Shown: positions 686-16,264 of the stretch, piece by piece
Numbering within the stretch: the stretch's first letter is position 1
Layout of the letters: each line of letters opens with the position of its first letter
IMG/VR virus record: IMGVR_UViG_3300017565_000017
Location: 128,779 to 192,778 of that record
Source: a virus
Taxonomy: Duplodnaviria > Heunggongvirae > Uroviricota > Caudoviricetes
Strand: one strand, 5' to 3'
Length of the DNA stretch: 64,000 nucleotides
The notes under the pieces: generated by a model
Databases searched by the model: none
What the model was told of the DNA's origin: nothing
Seen by the model: the letters and a program-made list of their open reading frames with translations, nothing else
Position numbers and translations under genes: made by a program

Positions 686-761
686 TGGAGGCCTAGGTGG
701 GACTCGAACCCACGACCCGGGAATTTAGAGTTCCCTGCTCTGCCAACTGAGCTACTAGGCC
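686..761 (-). tRNA. amber suppressor tRNA, anticodon CUA
   Basis: 76-nt canonical cloverleaf: GGCCTAG TA GCTC AGTTGGCA GAGC A GGGAA CT-CTA-AA TTCCC GGGTC GTGGG TTCGAGT CCCAC CTAGGCC T CCA; all four stems pair; CCA encoded. Confidence 0.95.
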
Positions 762-5552: not shown

Positions 5553-6296
5553 CTAACCTTTAGCCCGCTGTACGGCCTCCGCCAGCGTCTTGAACTCTTG
5601 AGGTGTTGGAATGCTGTCGAAGAGTTGATATCGGCTGAACCAGCGTTTCCGGGCGCGGTCTGAGAATAGAAACCGTGACCATTCAAGCACGCTAGATGCT
5701 GCCATCAGCAGATCTTGATTCACCGACATCGGTGGCGAGACTTCCACCGGGACTGCGTAAATGGCATACCGACCTTCCGGCAGATCTGGCATCCAGAAGG
5801 CGCGCACGAACTGCTTTTCCTTCTTATCTTGGCCTCCCACTATATTGTCAACGCGCACATAGCCCATGACTTTGTCGGAGGCGTCCTGCGGGATCTTATC
5901 CAGCAGAGAAACCTCGTTCATAAGGCGGCAGAGGCGTCGTGCGTACATCAGCTTGGAAGCAGTGGCACCGAAGTCTCCGGTGATCTCTGCGTAGACGGCT
6001 ACATCTGCAAAGAAATCGTCAGACTGCAAGCCAATCTTGCGCGGGTTGAGCTTGTCCACCGACACCTGCCACGGACCGGCGTCCGGAACAGGCGGCACCT
6101 TAGCCCCGAGACCTATACGGAACGCCTGGAACAGATCATACCGGGTGTGAGGCATTTCGTCAGCGACCTGGGCCGGGGTCTTATCCCCGTGCAGTTCAAC
6201 CCACTTCTCGGAGCCGAATTCCTTAAGGTCGCTTTCCAAGAGCTCTGTGTAGAGTTGGATAAAGAGAATTTCGTCTTGCGTGTATACGCGAGCCAT
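5553..6296 (-). CDS. hypothetical protein
   Basis: 247-aa ORF abutting upstream stop. Confidence 0.7.
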   Translation of the reverse strand: MARVYTQDEILFIQLYTELLESDLKEFGSEKWVELHGDKTPAQVADEMPHTRYDLFQAFRIGLGAKVPPVPDAGPWQVSVDKLNPRKIGLQSDDFFADVAVYAEITGDFGATASKLMYARRLCRLMNEVSLLDKIPQDASDKVMGYVRVDNIVGGQDKKEKQFVRAFWMPDLPEGRYAIYAVPVEVSPPMSVNQDLLMAASSVLEWSRFLFSDRARKRWFSRYQLFDSIPTPQEFKTLAEAVQRAKG

Positions 6297-6884
6297 TTAG
6301 CCTCTGTTCATTGCGAGTTCAAAGCGAGGCTCTGCGAGCCCCGTTCCGTAGATATACTTACCCCACGGCACGGTACGGATACCGTAGGATCCTACCTCCA
6401 AGCCGTTAAGGTTGATGTCGAAACCTTCCGGCGTAGCTACTGTCACCAGATTGGCTTCGTCTTCCGGATCCAGAAACATCTGCATGCACTGGATAGCGCT
6501 GGTCATCACATCCATCAACGAATCCGCGTCAACCTCATCGTTGCGGAACAGTTCCACCTTCATGAAGGTGTACCGGTGCGTGGGGCCAAACTCACGGCCC
6601 TCGTCCCGGAAGCATGGTGTGATAGCCACGTAAGACCCAGGGCTCTGGCTCAGATTCAGCTCCAGAAAACCCTGTTCCGCGGAACCTACGAGATCGCCGT
6701 GGTAAGGAACCCCCATAAGCCGACCCGTATCCGGGCAGGTCAGGATTGAGGTATGGCGGTCGACCAGCCATGGGACGCTACTATACGTGTACCCACAGTT
6801 CTCGTAAAACTCCAAGGCCGTTGTCAGACGTTGCCAGCCTGACGAGGAAATCTTGGGGTCACTGTTACGGTAGCGCGAGATCAT
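6297..6884 (-). CDS. minimal class II aminoacyl-tRNA synthetase-like protein (SerRS-like catalytic core only)
   Basis: Motif 1 GYTYSSVPW, LVGSAEQ, motif 2 TPCFRDE...FMKVEL, motif 3 GTGLAEPRF; only 195 aa. Confidence 0.8.
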   Translation of the reverse strand: MISRYRNSDPKISSSGWQRLTTALEFYENCGYTYSSVPWLVDRHTSILTCPDTGRLMGVPYHGDLVGSAEQGFLELNLSQSPGSYVAITPCFRDEGREFGPTHRYTFMKVELFRNDEVDADSLMDVMTSAIQCMQMFLDPEDEANLVTVATPEGFDINLNGLEVGSYGIRTVPWGKYIYGTGLAEPRFELAMNRG

Positions 6885-7183
6885 GAACGTCTCCCGCTCT
6901 GGAAGGCGCGCTTGGTAGCGTCGCTCATGATGCGAATATCTTCCATGGTGATGCCCGGGTGATTCTTCGCCAAGAACGCTTCCATGGCCCCATACATATC
7001 GGCCATTTCCGCCAGGGTCATGATCTTGTTCCCTTGCAGGTATGCGTCGATCAGTTCCGACAGTTCTTCCTGGATCTTGGAGATATCACCCAGCACACCC
7101 TTCTTGATGTGCGTCGTGTGATAACCCGCAGGGCGGGTGTCCGGCAGAGGGAAAGAATCTTCAGCGGAGTGTGCCATAATCAA
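6881..7183 (-). CDS. MazG-like all-alpha NTP pyrophosphohydrolase
   Basis: KIQEELSELIDA...AEMADMYG resembles the EExxE...ExxD metal motif. Confidence 0.6.
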   Translation of the reverse strand: MIMAHSAEDSFPLPDTRPAGYHTTHIKKGVLGDISKIQEELSELIDAYLQGNKIMTLAEMADMYGAMEAFLAKNHPGITMEDIRIMSDATKRAFQSGRRS

Positions 7184-8013
7184 CCTTTACGGTGGCGGAA
7201 CGATTGTTTGAGGTCAAAACCCGCAGCCACAATCTTTTCCTTGTCGGTCATTTGGGTAGCGGGCATCGTGTCCGGGCTTTCGTTCATCGTGTTGGCGATG
7301 AAATATTCCAGGTCTTGGTAGAGCTGGTACGGATCAACAACCGATTGGAAATCATGCTCTTGGAGGACCGGCAGATAGTAGCCGATGTGGTACGAAACTT
7401 CCGTCTGCTTGGTCGTCTGTGCGGGGCCAAAGATGCTGAACACCGGAGCTTGCAGCTTGCGGTGAATAGCCAGCAGCGTCTCCCCTCCGTCGATGGGGGT
7501 CGAGAACCGGGCGCGGGCCGCGTTACTCATGAGGGGCCATGCCGCGTGACCTTCGTGCAGCAGCGTATAGGATTTAGGATCATCCTCGACCCGGCGCTTA
7601 CGCTCTCGGGTTTCCCCAACTTGGCGCTCACGCTCTTCTTCTGTCATGCCCTTGCGCCCGATAACTGCGTACACCTTGCCCGCGACAGCAATCCAGTATG
7701 TGTCGTATTGACTCAGACGAGACGCAAAGTCCTTCTTGGTCTTCTTGTCCAGAGGACGGCCTTCTTCATCGACTTCCCGATAATCTAGGGAGCGACTCAC
7801 CCACGAGTATTTGCGGTACGGGGAATAGATATCGATGAGGCCGAGCCCCGCCGAAGTACCCTCCACGGTGGTCACGAACGTCGGGTGACGGTTTAGAAAG
7901 TAGGGGTTCGGAGCGCCTTCAAAGGCACGCCGGACATATGTATGCTTCTCGTCACGACCATGGACGTGGCTGACGAAGTCATAGAAATCACGGAAGGGGC
8001 TGAGAATTTTCAT
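7180..8013 (-). CDS. phage hypothetical protein (start MKILSPFRDFYD)
   Basis: Long ORF; MKI-x-S-x-F-x-D-[FY]-YD type N-terminus recalled from phage hypotheticals. Confidence 0.7.
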   Translation of the reverse strand: MKILSPFRDFYDFVSHVHGRDEKHTYVRRAFEGAPNPYFLNRHPTFVTTVEGTSAGLGLIDIYSPYRKYSWVSRSLDYREVDEEGRPLDKKTKKDFASRLSQYDTYWIAVAGKVYAVIGRKGMTEEERERQVGETRERKRRVEDDPKSYTLLHEGHAAWPLMSNAARARFSTPIDGGETLLAIHRKLQAPVFSIFGPAQTTKQTEVSYHIGYYLPVLQEHDFQSVVDPYQLYQDLEYFIANTMNESPDTMPATQMTDKEKIVAAGFDLKQSFRHRKG

Positions 8014-8185
8014 CAGGCTTATATCGCTCTTTTCCAGTGCCTCCGCAGCAGCCACAATACGGGCTGCCGTCAGAGTCGTAGTATCCAGAACCGCTACACG
8101 CCGTGCAGGGTCTGAGCTTCCAGCCCTTCACCTGCTTCTCGTAGTACTCAGTTCGTTGGCGTTTGCGCTCGGCGAAGTTGTTCAA
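7988..8185 (-). CDS. small DnaJ-type zinc-finger protein
   Basis: CTACSGSG...CGCCGGTG repeats. Confidence 0.65.
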   Translation of the reverse strand: MNNFAERKRQRTEYYEKQVKGWKLRPCTACSGSGYYDSDGSPYCGCCGGTGKERYKPDENSQPLP

Positions 8186-11905: not shown

Positions 11906-12352
11906 TCAGTCATTACTGAGGATCGTCTGGACCAGGGCAGAGAGTTCCTTGCCCGGATACAGATTGCCCACGCGGGCGCGCACCGGCTTCATGAGGGTAG
12001 CCATGTTAACCGGCTGGCCCTCAGGGATCTTGCGCGCTTCTTCCACGATGACGACGATGACTTCGTCTTCCGTCATTTGCTTGGGCAGGAATTGGCTGAT
12101 GAAAGCCACTTCTGCCAATTCTTGGGCGGCTTTGTCGCCAGCGCCACCCTTAAGGAACTGCTGTGCCGCGTCCTTGCGCTTGGCCGATTCCTTGACCAGC
12201 AAGGCAATACCCTCGTCCTCGGTCAGTTCGTGGCCGAGCTCAATTGCCTTGTTCTGGAAGGCGCTCACCAGCATCTGGAGCAGGGTGATCGTGTCCTGGT
12301 TCTTGGCACGGCGGGCTTCCACCAGCATCACCCGCAGTTGGTGAATGGTCAT
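11906..12352 (-). CDS. yqeY: GatB/YqeY domain protein
   Basis: A-x-x-AK...LL-x-ML...KRKDAAQQF-x-x-GG...ELAEV-x-F-I-x-x-FLPKQMTEDEV...NMATLMK. Confidence 0.85.
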   Translation of the reverse strand: MTIHQLRVMLVEARRAKNQDTITLLQMLVSAFQNKAIELGHELTEDEGIALLVKESAKRKDAAQQFLKGGAGDKAAQELAEVAFISQFLPKQMTEDEVIVVIVEEARKIPEGQPVNMATLMKPVRARVGNLYPGKELSALVQTILSND

Positions 12353-14362: not shown

Positions 14363-16264
14363 TTACAGCCCCTTGATAAAGTCTTCCCAGTGACGGGCTC
14401 GAGCGCCAGCCTTCTCGATCTTGCTGCTCTTCTTGCCGCCAACTTTCCAGAAGAGAACCGTGGTCGAACCGCTAACTGAGGAAGAGATCGTGCCCCCGCC
14501 ATCCACCCAAATCTTTTCCTGCTCCGGGCTGCGGTAGCCAGTCCAGCAGGCGGACATACCCTTGAACGGGCCTTCTTTGGGCGCTACCTTTACCACTTTC
14601 TTGTCCGGGATGATCTCAATGTGATTCCGGGCCTCTTCATAAATAGGACGGAAGCGCTTGAAGCCCTCCACCACCTTCTGAGCTGAGGTCTCCTGGAAGC
14701 CGGGTACTTGGGTCAGGAGGCGATCCATAATCACTTGGTCGCTGCACTGGAGCATGTTTTGCAGCGTGTAGTGCTCCTGAATATCCGTGAGCTTGCGCTC
14801 CCCCATACCGGCAGGCATACACGCAGTAGCCAGGATAAAAGTCTTGAGGCCGACCTTCTGAATCTTAGCCAATTCCTTGATTAGCGTCTCGGTCTTGGCG
14901 GGACCAATGCCCGACTTCAGGATTTCTCGTTGCACCCAGCCCCGGCGCGGTCCCATCATGAGCTTGGGGATCATAATGTAGGACATGATATCCTGGAAGC
15001 CCACTTCATACAGAGCTTCGATCGACTTGATCGCAATGTTCTCCACGCCGCACGTAACAAAGAAGTGGAGAATCTTCTGGTGCTCAGCGGCTGCGCTGAA
15101 TTCCGTGGCAAACAGCCAGCAACCCTTACGCTCGTAAGGAACAGACGGCCACTTTAGGGGCGCAGGCTGCACCGTACCTACGTAGAACGGGATAACGTCG
15201 CCACCACGCACCACCTTGATAATGGCTCCAGGGCCGACCTGTCGCTCTTCCATGAGGGAGGCATTGTGCATCGTAACTTGCGTCACCGTAACGCCGCCAA
15301 TCTCGGTAGGCTCAATGATTGCCACCGGAGTCAGTTTCTTGGATTTGGCTTCCTCGTAAATGATATCCAGGACCTTAGCCTCAGGAGCATTCTCTTCTGC
15401 CGTGTTTTCCTTGAACGCAAACGTCCACTTAGGTTTGTCGGCGTCTGTGTACTCAAAGGGGTGGTCAGCCGGTACGTATACCAGACCGTCCATCTCGAAT
15501 TCGGAATCTGCAAGGCGCTCGTTTAGATGCTTGCTCGGCAACGTGGGGTCCGCTACGATAGAGCCCTTCATAACGGCTCGGTAGTGCGCCACATCAAAGC
15601 CGTTGTATTGAGCCCATTTCAGGCCCTCTTCCATGGGTTTGCCGTATACGCCGAGGACCTTCATGTAGACGAACTGAAAATCATCCTTGGTGGCGTCGCC
15701 CTTGTCGGCACTGCGATTGAAGAGGCCATTAACCGCAGCGCGGGCATTCTTCTTGCCCTTCTTTTCACCGGCAGCCTGTATGGAAAAGCGCTCGTTGAAG
15801 TCCTGAATCGTGAGCATGCCTTCAATGCGCAAGTCCACAGTGGACTTGTCCTTAATTTGCTCCGGAATATTCAGGAGCGGAATCAAGAAGGATACATCCT
15901 TGCCCAGCGTGCCGTCCCCACGGGTCCCCAGGAAGATAGGCTTACCGCCCACGTACCGCAGCAGCAACGAAGTGCCGTCGTACTTGATGAGTTCGAGCCA
16001 TCGCAGCACCTTCTTCTTGGTGAAGGTTTTCTCCACAGCGTCTGGGTAAATCTTGTCCAGGCTCGGCATCAGTTGAGGCAGCGGTACTTCGACTTTCTTG
16101 TCGAGAATGCGCACGCCTGTCTGTTTTAGACCTTTCCAGTCGGGGTCTGCCTTACGAAGCTTGTTTTCCAGCGCGTCGAACACGTGATCTTCGACTTCGG
16201 GATCGCCGTTGTAGTAGGCATTCTTCCAACGCATGTAAAGGGCTTTGTCTTGGTCGAGGCTCAT
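14363..16264 (-). CDS. ligA: NAD+-dependent DNA ligase
   Basis: YYNG, MPSLDK, KYDG adenylation motif, TRGDG, DGLV, AFK, OB fold (VRGGDVIP), HhH, C-terminal BRCT-like. Confidence 0.93.
   Translation of the reverse strand: MSLDQDKALYMRWKNAYYNGDPEVEDHVFDALENKLRKADPDWKGLKQTGVRILDKKVEVPLPQLMPSLDKIYPDAVEKTFTKKKVLRWLELIKYDGTSLLLRYVGGKPIFLGTRGDGTLGKDVSFLIPLLNIPEQIKDKSTVDLRIEGMLTIQDFNERFSIQAAGEKKGKKNARAAVNGLFNRSADKGDATKDDFQFVYMKVLGVYGKPMEEGLKWAQYNGFDVAHYRAVMKGSIVADPTLPSKHLNERLADSEFEMDGLVYVPADHPFEYTDADKPKWTFAFKENTAEENAPEAKVLDIIYEEAKSKKLTPVAIIEPTEIGGVTVTQVTMHNASLMEERQVGPGAIIKVVRGGDVIPFYVGTVQPAPLKWPSVPYERKGCWLFATEFSAAAEHQKILHFFVTCGVENIAIKSIEALYEVGFQDIMSYIMIPKLMMGPRRGWVQREILKSGIGPAKTETLIKELAKIQKVGLKTFILATACMPAGMGERKLTDIQEHYTLQNMLQCSDQVIMDRLLTQVPGFQETSAQKVVEGFKRFRPIYEEARNHIEIIPDKKVVKVAPKEGPFKGMSACWTGYRSPEQEKIWVDGGGTISSSVSGSTTVLFWKVGGKKSSKIEKAGARARHWEDFIKGL

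Follow-up and report, generated by a model that had tools for sequence, protein, structure and literature searches.

A seryl-tRNA synthetase-like catalytic core and a HisE/MazG-like protein form a conserved two-gene module in phages, CPR bacteria and DPANN archaea

The 64,000-nucleotide stretch of caudoviricete DNA analysed here (positions 128,779 to 192,778 of IMG/VR record IMGVR_UViG_3300017565_000017; hereafter the window) encodes a short protein resembling the catalytic core of a class II aminoacyl-tRNA synthetase, with seryl-tRNA synthetase (SerRS) as its closest likeness. The start of this core gene overlaps the end of a gene for a HisE/MazG-like partner, and an amber tRNA gene, tRNA(CUA), lies some kilobases away. 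The locus raises the question of whether the core charges this tRNA, as an earlier note made from the sequence alone had proposed, or whether it serves another acceptor together with its neighbour. Our analysis shows that core and partner are a conserved two-gene module in which the pairing is obligate and sometimes takes the form of a fusion, and that this module occurs independently of tRNA(CUA). That the partner is obligate and sometimes fused, which the earlier note missed, constrains function more than the distance to the tRNA does.

Core and partner form a conserved two-gene module

The pairing was assessed at 83 phage places, namely the window itself, two phage records and 80 IMG/VR loci that encode a core relative; the partner was sought in them with an iterated hidden Markov model. 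The partner is present in 82 of the 83, on the same strand in every case. It is adjacent to the core or overlaps it on the upstream side in 43 loci, is adjacent downstream in 10, overlaps the start of the core domain in three, lies 200-2,000 nt upstream in 25 and is fused to the core in one. The open reading frames (ORFs) that separate the two genes in those 25 loci are heterogeneous, without a common family. No other gene family is common to more than 14 of the 83 loci; the recurrent neighbours of the module are ribonucleotide reductase (RNR), NAD-dependent DNA ligase, helicases and tRNA arrays.

The module is also found in cells. One scan of 185,579 species genomes returned 30 loci, mostly from bacteria of the candidate phyla radiation (CPR; Saccharibacteria, Woesebacteria and others) and DPANN archaea, with a few from Rhizobiales and Sphingobium. 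The partner, here too adjacent to the core, is encoded on the same strand in 27 of these 30 loci (29 of 32 when two separately retrieved bacterial places are counted), and in 11 of them it is fused C-terminally to the core, giving proteins of 265-298 amino acids (aa). The same core-partner fusion occurs as ORF129L in the cultured Microcystis phage MaMV-DC and in three of 247 cluster representatives. Altogether, the fusion is seen in about a dozen lineages spanning CPR bacteria, DPANN archaea and this Microcystis phage.

The core family is large, comprising 1,209 clusters at 50% identity in an exhaustive profile search (E <= 1e-30). By tblastn the core was detected in 276 phage records, including phages of Escherichia, Acinetobacter, Caulobacter, Brevundimonas, Microcystis, Pectobacterium and Cronobacter; the groups that carry the module include Vequintavirinae, Stephanstirmvirinae, the T4-like phages of Acinetobacter, CbK-like phages and Microcystis phages. 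A megablast search with 20 kb of the window found no match among phage records. We found no functional study of the core or partner family in the literature. One homologue has been called SerRS beside two MazG genes, at annotation level only (PMC8953757), and a survey of jumbo phages does not mention the family (PMC7824862). The labels 'histidyl' and 'seryl tRNA synthetase' that databases attach to its members have been given without any test.

The SerRS-like core, its partner and their coupling

The core protein matches its PHROGs family, phrog_4806, with E 5.4e-36 (residues 19-194 on positions 9-186 of the 190-position profile); the name of that family, 'histidyl tRNA synthetase', is an automatic label and conveys predicted function only. 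Its matches to Pfam are confined to sub-threshold class II hits (tRNA-synt_2, E 0.005), and a single-sequence phmmer search of the PDB with the core found no match. SerRS is reached by profile only, and is then the first PDB match of the family profile (E 7e-5). An AlphaFold2 model of the core, built from 58 relatives, reached a predicted local distance difference test score (pLDDT) of 94.6 and a predicted template modelling score of 0.90. With this model Foldseek retrieved only class II cores, those of pyrrolysyl-tRNA synthetase (PylRS) and SerRS (E 6e-10 to 2e-9), and in exhaustive VIA-align comparisons SerRS catalytic domains headed the ranking (Z 19.6-18.5, 189 of the 195 residues aligned, root-mean-square deviation 2.4, 17-21% identity). 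These were followed by HisZ and the histidyl-tRNA synthetase HisRS (Z 19.0-17.3), PylRS (17.5) and the prolyl and threonyl enzymes ProRS and ThrRS (~17); the amino acid:carrier-protein ligase Bll0957 (16.8), GenX (13.6) and AsnA (13.3) came lower. SerRS of bacterial type (class IIa, Z 18.5-19.6) scores above the M. barkeri enzyme (Z 15.3) and 3MEY (Z 16.8). PylRS, a compact class II core of similar size, heads the Foldseek list (TMq 0.69, E 6e-10) but ranks below SerRS in profile, identity and Z.

The active-site motifs point the same way. The core was compared with two genuine SerRS from the retrieved loci (TIGR00414, E 1e-135 and 2e-122), and five of five active-site elements were matched: GSAEQ corresponds to GT(S/A)E, TPCFRDE to (S)xC(F/Y)RxE, FMKVE to F(N/V)K(V/T)E, EVGSYG to EVGSCSN and GTGLAEPR to NNTAIATSR. 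The core has motif 1 (GYTYSSVPW), the T/S-x-E loop, the E-V-G-S element and the SerRS forms of motif 2 (TPCFRxE...F-x-KVE, here TPCFRDE...FMKVEL) and motif 3 (T-x-x-A-x-x-R). The residues S68, E70, R93, E95, F107, K109, E111, E163, S166, T181 and R187 are invariant across the family and fall within these five motifs. Because the five elements are matched and the invariant residues lie within them, the 195-aa protein can be described as a SerRS-like catalytic core alone. The set T/S-x-E, R-x-E, K-V-E, E-x-x-S and T...R, which we take to line the seryl-adenylate pocket, is kept in full and is invariant in the family; the assignment of its residues to serine and ATP contacts is an assumption based on structures of T. 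thermophilus SerRS. On this evidence the core appears to keep everything needed for aminoacyl-adenylate formation, in a pocket that looks SerRS-like.

Unlike SerRS, the core is without the N-terminal coiled-coil arm, about 55 residues of insertions and the C-terminal tail. Neither a coiled-coil tRNA-binding arm nor an anticodon domain was found in it, and 195 aa leaves no room for them; residues 2-195 of the model cover only residues ~151-394 of SerRS. Its motif 2 loop lacks five residues relative to SerRS, and the TIGR00414 score of 11.1 bits does not reach the equivalog cut-off of 301.65 bits. Small size is a property of the family, whose members are typically 175-200 aa long with a median of 191 aa; no relative exceeded 342 aa, although the search depended on shared short words and this is weak evidence. 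Both module proteins are acidic, with a median isoelectric point of 5.0 and a family net charge of about -8. The earlier note had recognised class II motifs 1-3 of SerRS type, aligning TPCFRDE and FMKVEL with SerRS TPCFRSE and FDKVE, in a catalytic core stripped of arm and anticodon domain; both points are borne out, the latter by the length of the protein and the mapping of the model alike. An antisense ORF of 344 aa (5715-6749, plus strand) overlaps the core gene and exceeds it in length. A simple longest-ORF caller chose this antisense ORF over the real gene, so automatic annotation of the locus may go wrong.

The partner comprises 100 aa when read from the TTG at 7183, the ATG at 7177 being the likelier start. 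It matches phrog_6408 (E 6e-34), and its similarities outside that family are confined to PRA-PH/HisE and MazG. It scores below the cut-offs of Pfam PRA-PH (E 0.0013, 19.6 bits against 21.3) and of the NCBIfam hisE domain (E 5e-4, 20.2 bits against 42.7). Its profile matched the MazG-like protein SSO3215 and HisE in the PDB. The model of the partner consists of three helices (pLDDT 90.5), for which Foldseek returned HisE first (2a7w, probability 0.99) and MazG next, although all of these matches are weak (E > 0.1). By sequence and predicted fold, then, HisE and after it MazG are the nearest relatives of the partner; it falls below the cut-offs that define HisE, the phosphoribosyl-ATP pyrophosphohydrolase. 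The acidic residues of the EExxE...ExxD motif (E39, E40, E43, E59 and D62) are invariant in 55 partner sequences, and the invariant set as a whole is Y21, H22, K36, E39, E40, E43, E59, D62 and T90. These family matches and the acidic motif uphold the earlier note's description of the partner as MazG-like. The partner is 53% identical between the window phage and an E. coli Vequintavirinae phage, which makes it more conserved than the core; mean column identity is 50% for the partner and 38% for the core.

The translational coupling that the earlier note reported is borne out: the ATG of the core overlaps the TGA of the partner as ATGA, with a GGGAGA ribosome-binding site upstream. The TGA of the 291-aa ORF upstream likewise overlaps the TTG of the partner. 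This ORF belongs to the same coupled gene string, yet it is not a conserved member of the module, and the 247-aa ORF downstream of the core is not conserved with the module either. A complex prediction for core and partner scored 0.00, which has no bearing on binding either way. In PADLOC, neither core nor partner, nor their neighbours or the fused form, matched a defence system.

Candidate functions of the module

We favour the reading that core and partner act jointly on a nucleotide-type substrate, with a probability of roughly 45%, a figure that includes the generic parts of the proposal. It is suggested by the SerRS-like pocket of the core, by an inseparable partner with an intact metal site, by the lack of any other conserved partner and of RNA-binding appendages, by the acidity of both proteins, and by neighbourhoods with RNR, DNA ligase, helicase and tRNA genes. 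Most likely, the core would bind ATP together with serine, or with a small polar amino acid much like it, and yield an aminoacyl-adenylate and pyrophosphate. The partner domain of about 85 aa, of HisE/MazG type with an apparently intact site for metal and nucleoside triphosphate (NTP), would be an enzyme of the sort that splits NTPs at the alpha-beta bond. The two would share a nucleotide-type substrate or product, for example in seryl transfer to a nucleotide, or to an acceptor resembling one, which the partner would bind or process, or alternatively in the processing of an adenylate-derived dinucleotide. On this proposal the overlapping genes would specify one functional unit, a presumably associating pair of proteins here and a single fused polypeptide elsewhere, and the acceptor would more likely be something other than a dedicated tRNA. 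The proximity to the amber tRNA would then reflect the frequent position of the module within the tRNA, nucleotide-metabolism and replication gene block of large phages. The part of the earlier note that is compatible with these results is its suggestion of amino-acid activation by a truncated SerRS paralogue put to non-standard use, which fits the intact SerRS-like active site; the mini orthogonal pair with tRNA(CUA) fares badly, as set out in the next section.

A more specific version is possible but rather doubtful: a hitherto unrecognised two-domain enzyme would apply seryl-adenylate chemistry to a nucleotide or RNA end, giving a new aminoacyl-nucleotide, cap-like or tRNA-end product, and would serve large phages, CPR bacteria and DPANN archaea in common as a means to manipulate translation or nucleotide pools.

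Known enzymes offer partial parallels for such an activity. Bll0957 (PDB 3MEY) and the other amino acid:[carrier protein] ligases, which are truncated SerRS homologues, likewise have an arm-less SerRS-like core and a non-tRNA acceptor, and share the fold. Their origin is in SerRS of the zinc-dependent methanogen type, they run to about 300 aa and they are encoded beside a carrier-protein gene, whereas the present core looks closer to the bacterial type and is 175-200 aa long; no carrier-protein gene is conserved beside the module in the 83 loci, where the MazG/HisE-like gene is the sole conserved neighbour. EpmA (GenX/PoxA), BirA and LplA are tRNA-free class II cores that pass an acyl-adenylate to a protein lysine, but they are much weaker matches to the core than SerRS is. 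Given the invariant K36 of the partner, a protein acceptor is conceivable. We know of no SerRS that occurs with a HisE/MazG-like partner.

Several observations weigh against joint action on a nucleotide-type substrate. In 24 of 82 loci the module has tRNA genes no more than 10 kb away. In CbK-like phages the core carries an N-terminal helix-hairpin-helix (HhH) domain of the RNA polymerase alpha-CTD type (PF03118, E 3e-6; gp133 of Caulobacter phage CcrColossus, retrieved locus L002:4749-5603), which hints that at least these versions may bind nucleic acid. A gene for a YqeY protein directly follows the module in E. coli phage PD06 (L136:4523-4957) and another lies near it in the window, and genuine serS genes are found near the fused gene in two metagenome-assembled genomes (MAGs). 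Such tRNA neighbourhoods, domain fusion and gene proximities would suit a tRNA-directed role equally well.

The main rival takes this tRNA-directed role at face value. The core would be a minimalist seryl-tRNA synthetase that charges tRNA 3' ends, those of host or phage tRNA(Ser) or of tRNAs generally, through the acceptor end alone; it would support translation or tRNA repair during infection, with the partner as an aid that might, for instance, hold nucleotides or the 5' end. Besides the observations just listed, the intact aminoacylation-type active site is consistent with it, as are carriers that are mostly tRNA-rich large phages and RNA-repair genes close by (Pnk-Rnl in the window, a CCA enzyme and a nucleotidyltransferase in Vequintavirinae, an RNA ligase in a bacterial locus). 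Most members, however, have neither a tRNA-binding arm nor another RNA-binding domain, and the shortened motif 2 loop and the acidity of both proteins would argue against the core as a self-sufficient tRNA binder. MaMV-DC encodes the fused gene yet has two tRNAs, neither of them for serine, and the CPR and DPANN genomes encode a normal SerRS besides the module. The obligate MazG/HisE partner, furthermore, is left unexplained by this scheme, which we regard as unlikely.

Two further schemes are improbable. In the first, the core would be a HisZ-like sensor that binds an amino acid and ATP and regulates the pyrophosphatase partner while transferring nothing. HisZ is a class IIa core without tRNA function, HisZ/HisRS-like chains nearly equal SerRS in the structural ranking (Z 19.0 against 19.6), the nearest relatives of the partner are HisE enzymes, and obligate pairing and fusion would suit a regulatory couple. 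Unlike in HisZ, however, the catalytic positions of the family core are invariant, including the arginines of motifs 2 and 3 and the Mg-binding Glu and Ser positions, all superfluous for a pure sensor, and no HisG-type partner is conserved nearby. In the second scheme, the core would make dinucleoside polyphosphates (Ap4A or Np4N) through seryl-adenylate, or cap 5'-triphosphate RNA, and the partner would cleave or trim the product. SerRS makes Ap4A, both enzymes would act on the alpha-beta bond of ATP-type nucleotides, and the obligate pairing or fusion and the nucleotide-metabolism neighbourhoods of the module are in keeping with such chemistry. To couple a synthase to a hydrolase would seem futile without regulation, though, and nothing here separates this scheme from other nucleotide-acceptor schemes; we hold it to be about as improbable as the sensor.

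The amber tRNA and other neighbouring genes

The tRNA(CUA) gene (Table 1) lies 5.5 kb from the core gene, as the earlier note reported; it closes a block of 24 tRNA genes, a detail that the note did not mention. The 242,859-bp jumbo-phage genome has 25 tRNA genes in all, at 111-129.5 kb, and they cover all 20 amino acids. With its standard D loop containing GG and its GTTCGAGT T loop, tRNA(CUA) is unlike tRNA(Pyl), which has a short D loop, a 3-nt variable loop and no GG or T-psi-C; the 'Pyl' label given by ARAGORN reflects the anticodon only. Its acceptor stem begins G1-C72/G2-C71/C3-G70, and it bears no close likeness to the other tRNAs of the phage. TAG ends 74 of 329 ORFs (22%), and the standard code gives a coding density of 90%. 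Genome-wide recoding of TAG was rejected, since treating TAG as a sense codon brings no greater gain than doing so for TGA or TAA. With TAG still a stop, read-through, counter-defence or a relic are possibilities for the role of this tRNA.

The distribution of CUA tRNAs gives no sign of the co-occurrence with the family that the earlier note had in view. They lie within 10 kb of the module in four of 82 loci. Whole-record tRNA scans of eight other module-bearing genomes, nine with the window phage, found no CUA tRNA in six: CcrColossus (28 tRNAs), a terminal-repeat IMG/VR genome rated 100% complete (28), UPEC06 (6), CR8 (18), MaMV-DC (2) and PD06 (15). Five of these six are complete, the UPEC06 record being partial. 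A CUA tRNA was found in the window phage, Acinetobacter phage AM101 and one tRNA-rich IMG/VR fragment; these tRNAs differ in backbone, class and discriminator base and are unrelated to each other. As six of the nine module genomes lack a CUA tRNA, homologues of the core occur independently of CUA tRNAs. The 5.5-kb gap is explained by the module adjoining a tRNA block, a common arrangement. Nothing singles out tRNA(CUA) for the core, and action on it is not supported, though not thereby disproved. The notion that the two form a private orthogonal pair inserting an amino acid at amber codons can draw on their proximity, on an arm-less core and an arm-less (class I) tRNA for which recognition of a long variable arm would not be needed, on the high rank among fold matches of PylRS, an enzyme that has a CUA tRNA as its partner, and on the three of nine genomes with such a tRNA; set against the distribution and dissimilarity of CUA tRNAs, a standard cloverleaf at the end of a tRNA block, the use of TAG as a stop and a sequence affinity to SerRS rather than PylRS, it is very improbable and, on distribution, already close to refuted.

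Table 1. Features of the window discussed in the text (window positions)
Feature	Positions	Strand	Remarks
tRNA(CUA)	686-761	-	Canonical cloverleaf, 5-nt variable loop, U73, encoded CCA; not counted in the module
Pnk-Rnl fusion, 480 aa	3001-4443	-	Polynucleotide-kinase-like P-loop (AAA_33, E 2e-21; phrog_505) and RNA-ligase-like part (phrog_562)
247-aa ORF downstream of core	5553..6296	-	No family match; ATG directly after core TAA
Mini class II aminoacyl-tRNA synthetase core, SerRS-like	6297..6884	-	195 aa, phrog_4806
ATGA overlap	6881..6884	-	Core ATG on partner TGA, translational coupling; GGGAGA just upstream
HisE/MazG-type all-alpha NTP pyrophosphohydrolase-like partner	6881..7183	-	phrog_6408
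291-aa ORF upstream of partner	7180..8055	-	C-terminal part matches phrog_4243, function unknown
YqeY/GatB-tail domain protein	11906-12352	-	PF09424, E 3e-24; 5 kb upstream of module
NAD-dependent DNA ligase, adenylation and OB domains	14363-16264	-	

Other genes recur around the module to varying degrees. Within 10 kb of it, a homologue of the NAD-dependent DNA ligase is found in 11 loci and RNR subunits in 12. In the window, the Pnk-Rnl RNA-repair enzyme sits between the tRNA block and the module. YqeY was rejected as a regular third partner: it adjoins the module in PD06 only, is 5 kb off in the window and is absent from the other retrieved loci. In eight loci, two of them bacterial (L101:6612-7436, L102:7144-7998, L004, L009, L015, L028, L076 and L003), a functionally uncharacterised domain of about 190 aa, phrog_4784, either is joined to the partner at its N-terminus or is encoded between partner and core; as it is present in these eight only, it was rejected as a general third component. 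The genuine serS genes lie 0.9 kb (a Nanoarchaeota MAG, L116:5804-7099) and 5 kb (a Woesebacteria MAG, L127:13795-15069) from the fused mini-SerRS/MazG gene, a proximity that, at two of 30 loci, exceeds chance expectation, though the number is small. The Agrobacterium rubi module has a Wadjet (JetABC) locus about 3 kb away.

For the window the consequence is negative: the core gene offers no grounds for inferring an orthogonal amber pair encoded by the phage. The gene belongs to a two-part enzyme family that is large, uncharacterised and misannotated, and that falls under the wider theme of class II synthetase paralogues. Non-translational chemistry has drawn on the class II synthetase core several times, in AsnA, HisZ, BirA/LplA, EpmA and the amino acid:carrier-protein ligases, and the module would be another, very common, instance of such reuse. 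Identification of its product would correct a widespread misannotation, and might reveal a new aminoacyl-nucleotide or RNA-end chemistry that operates during infection.

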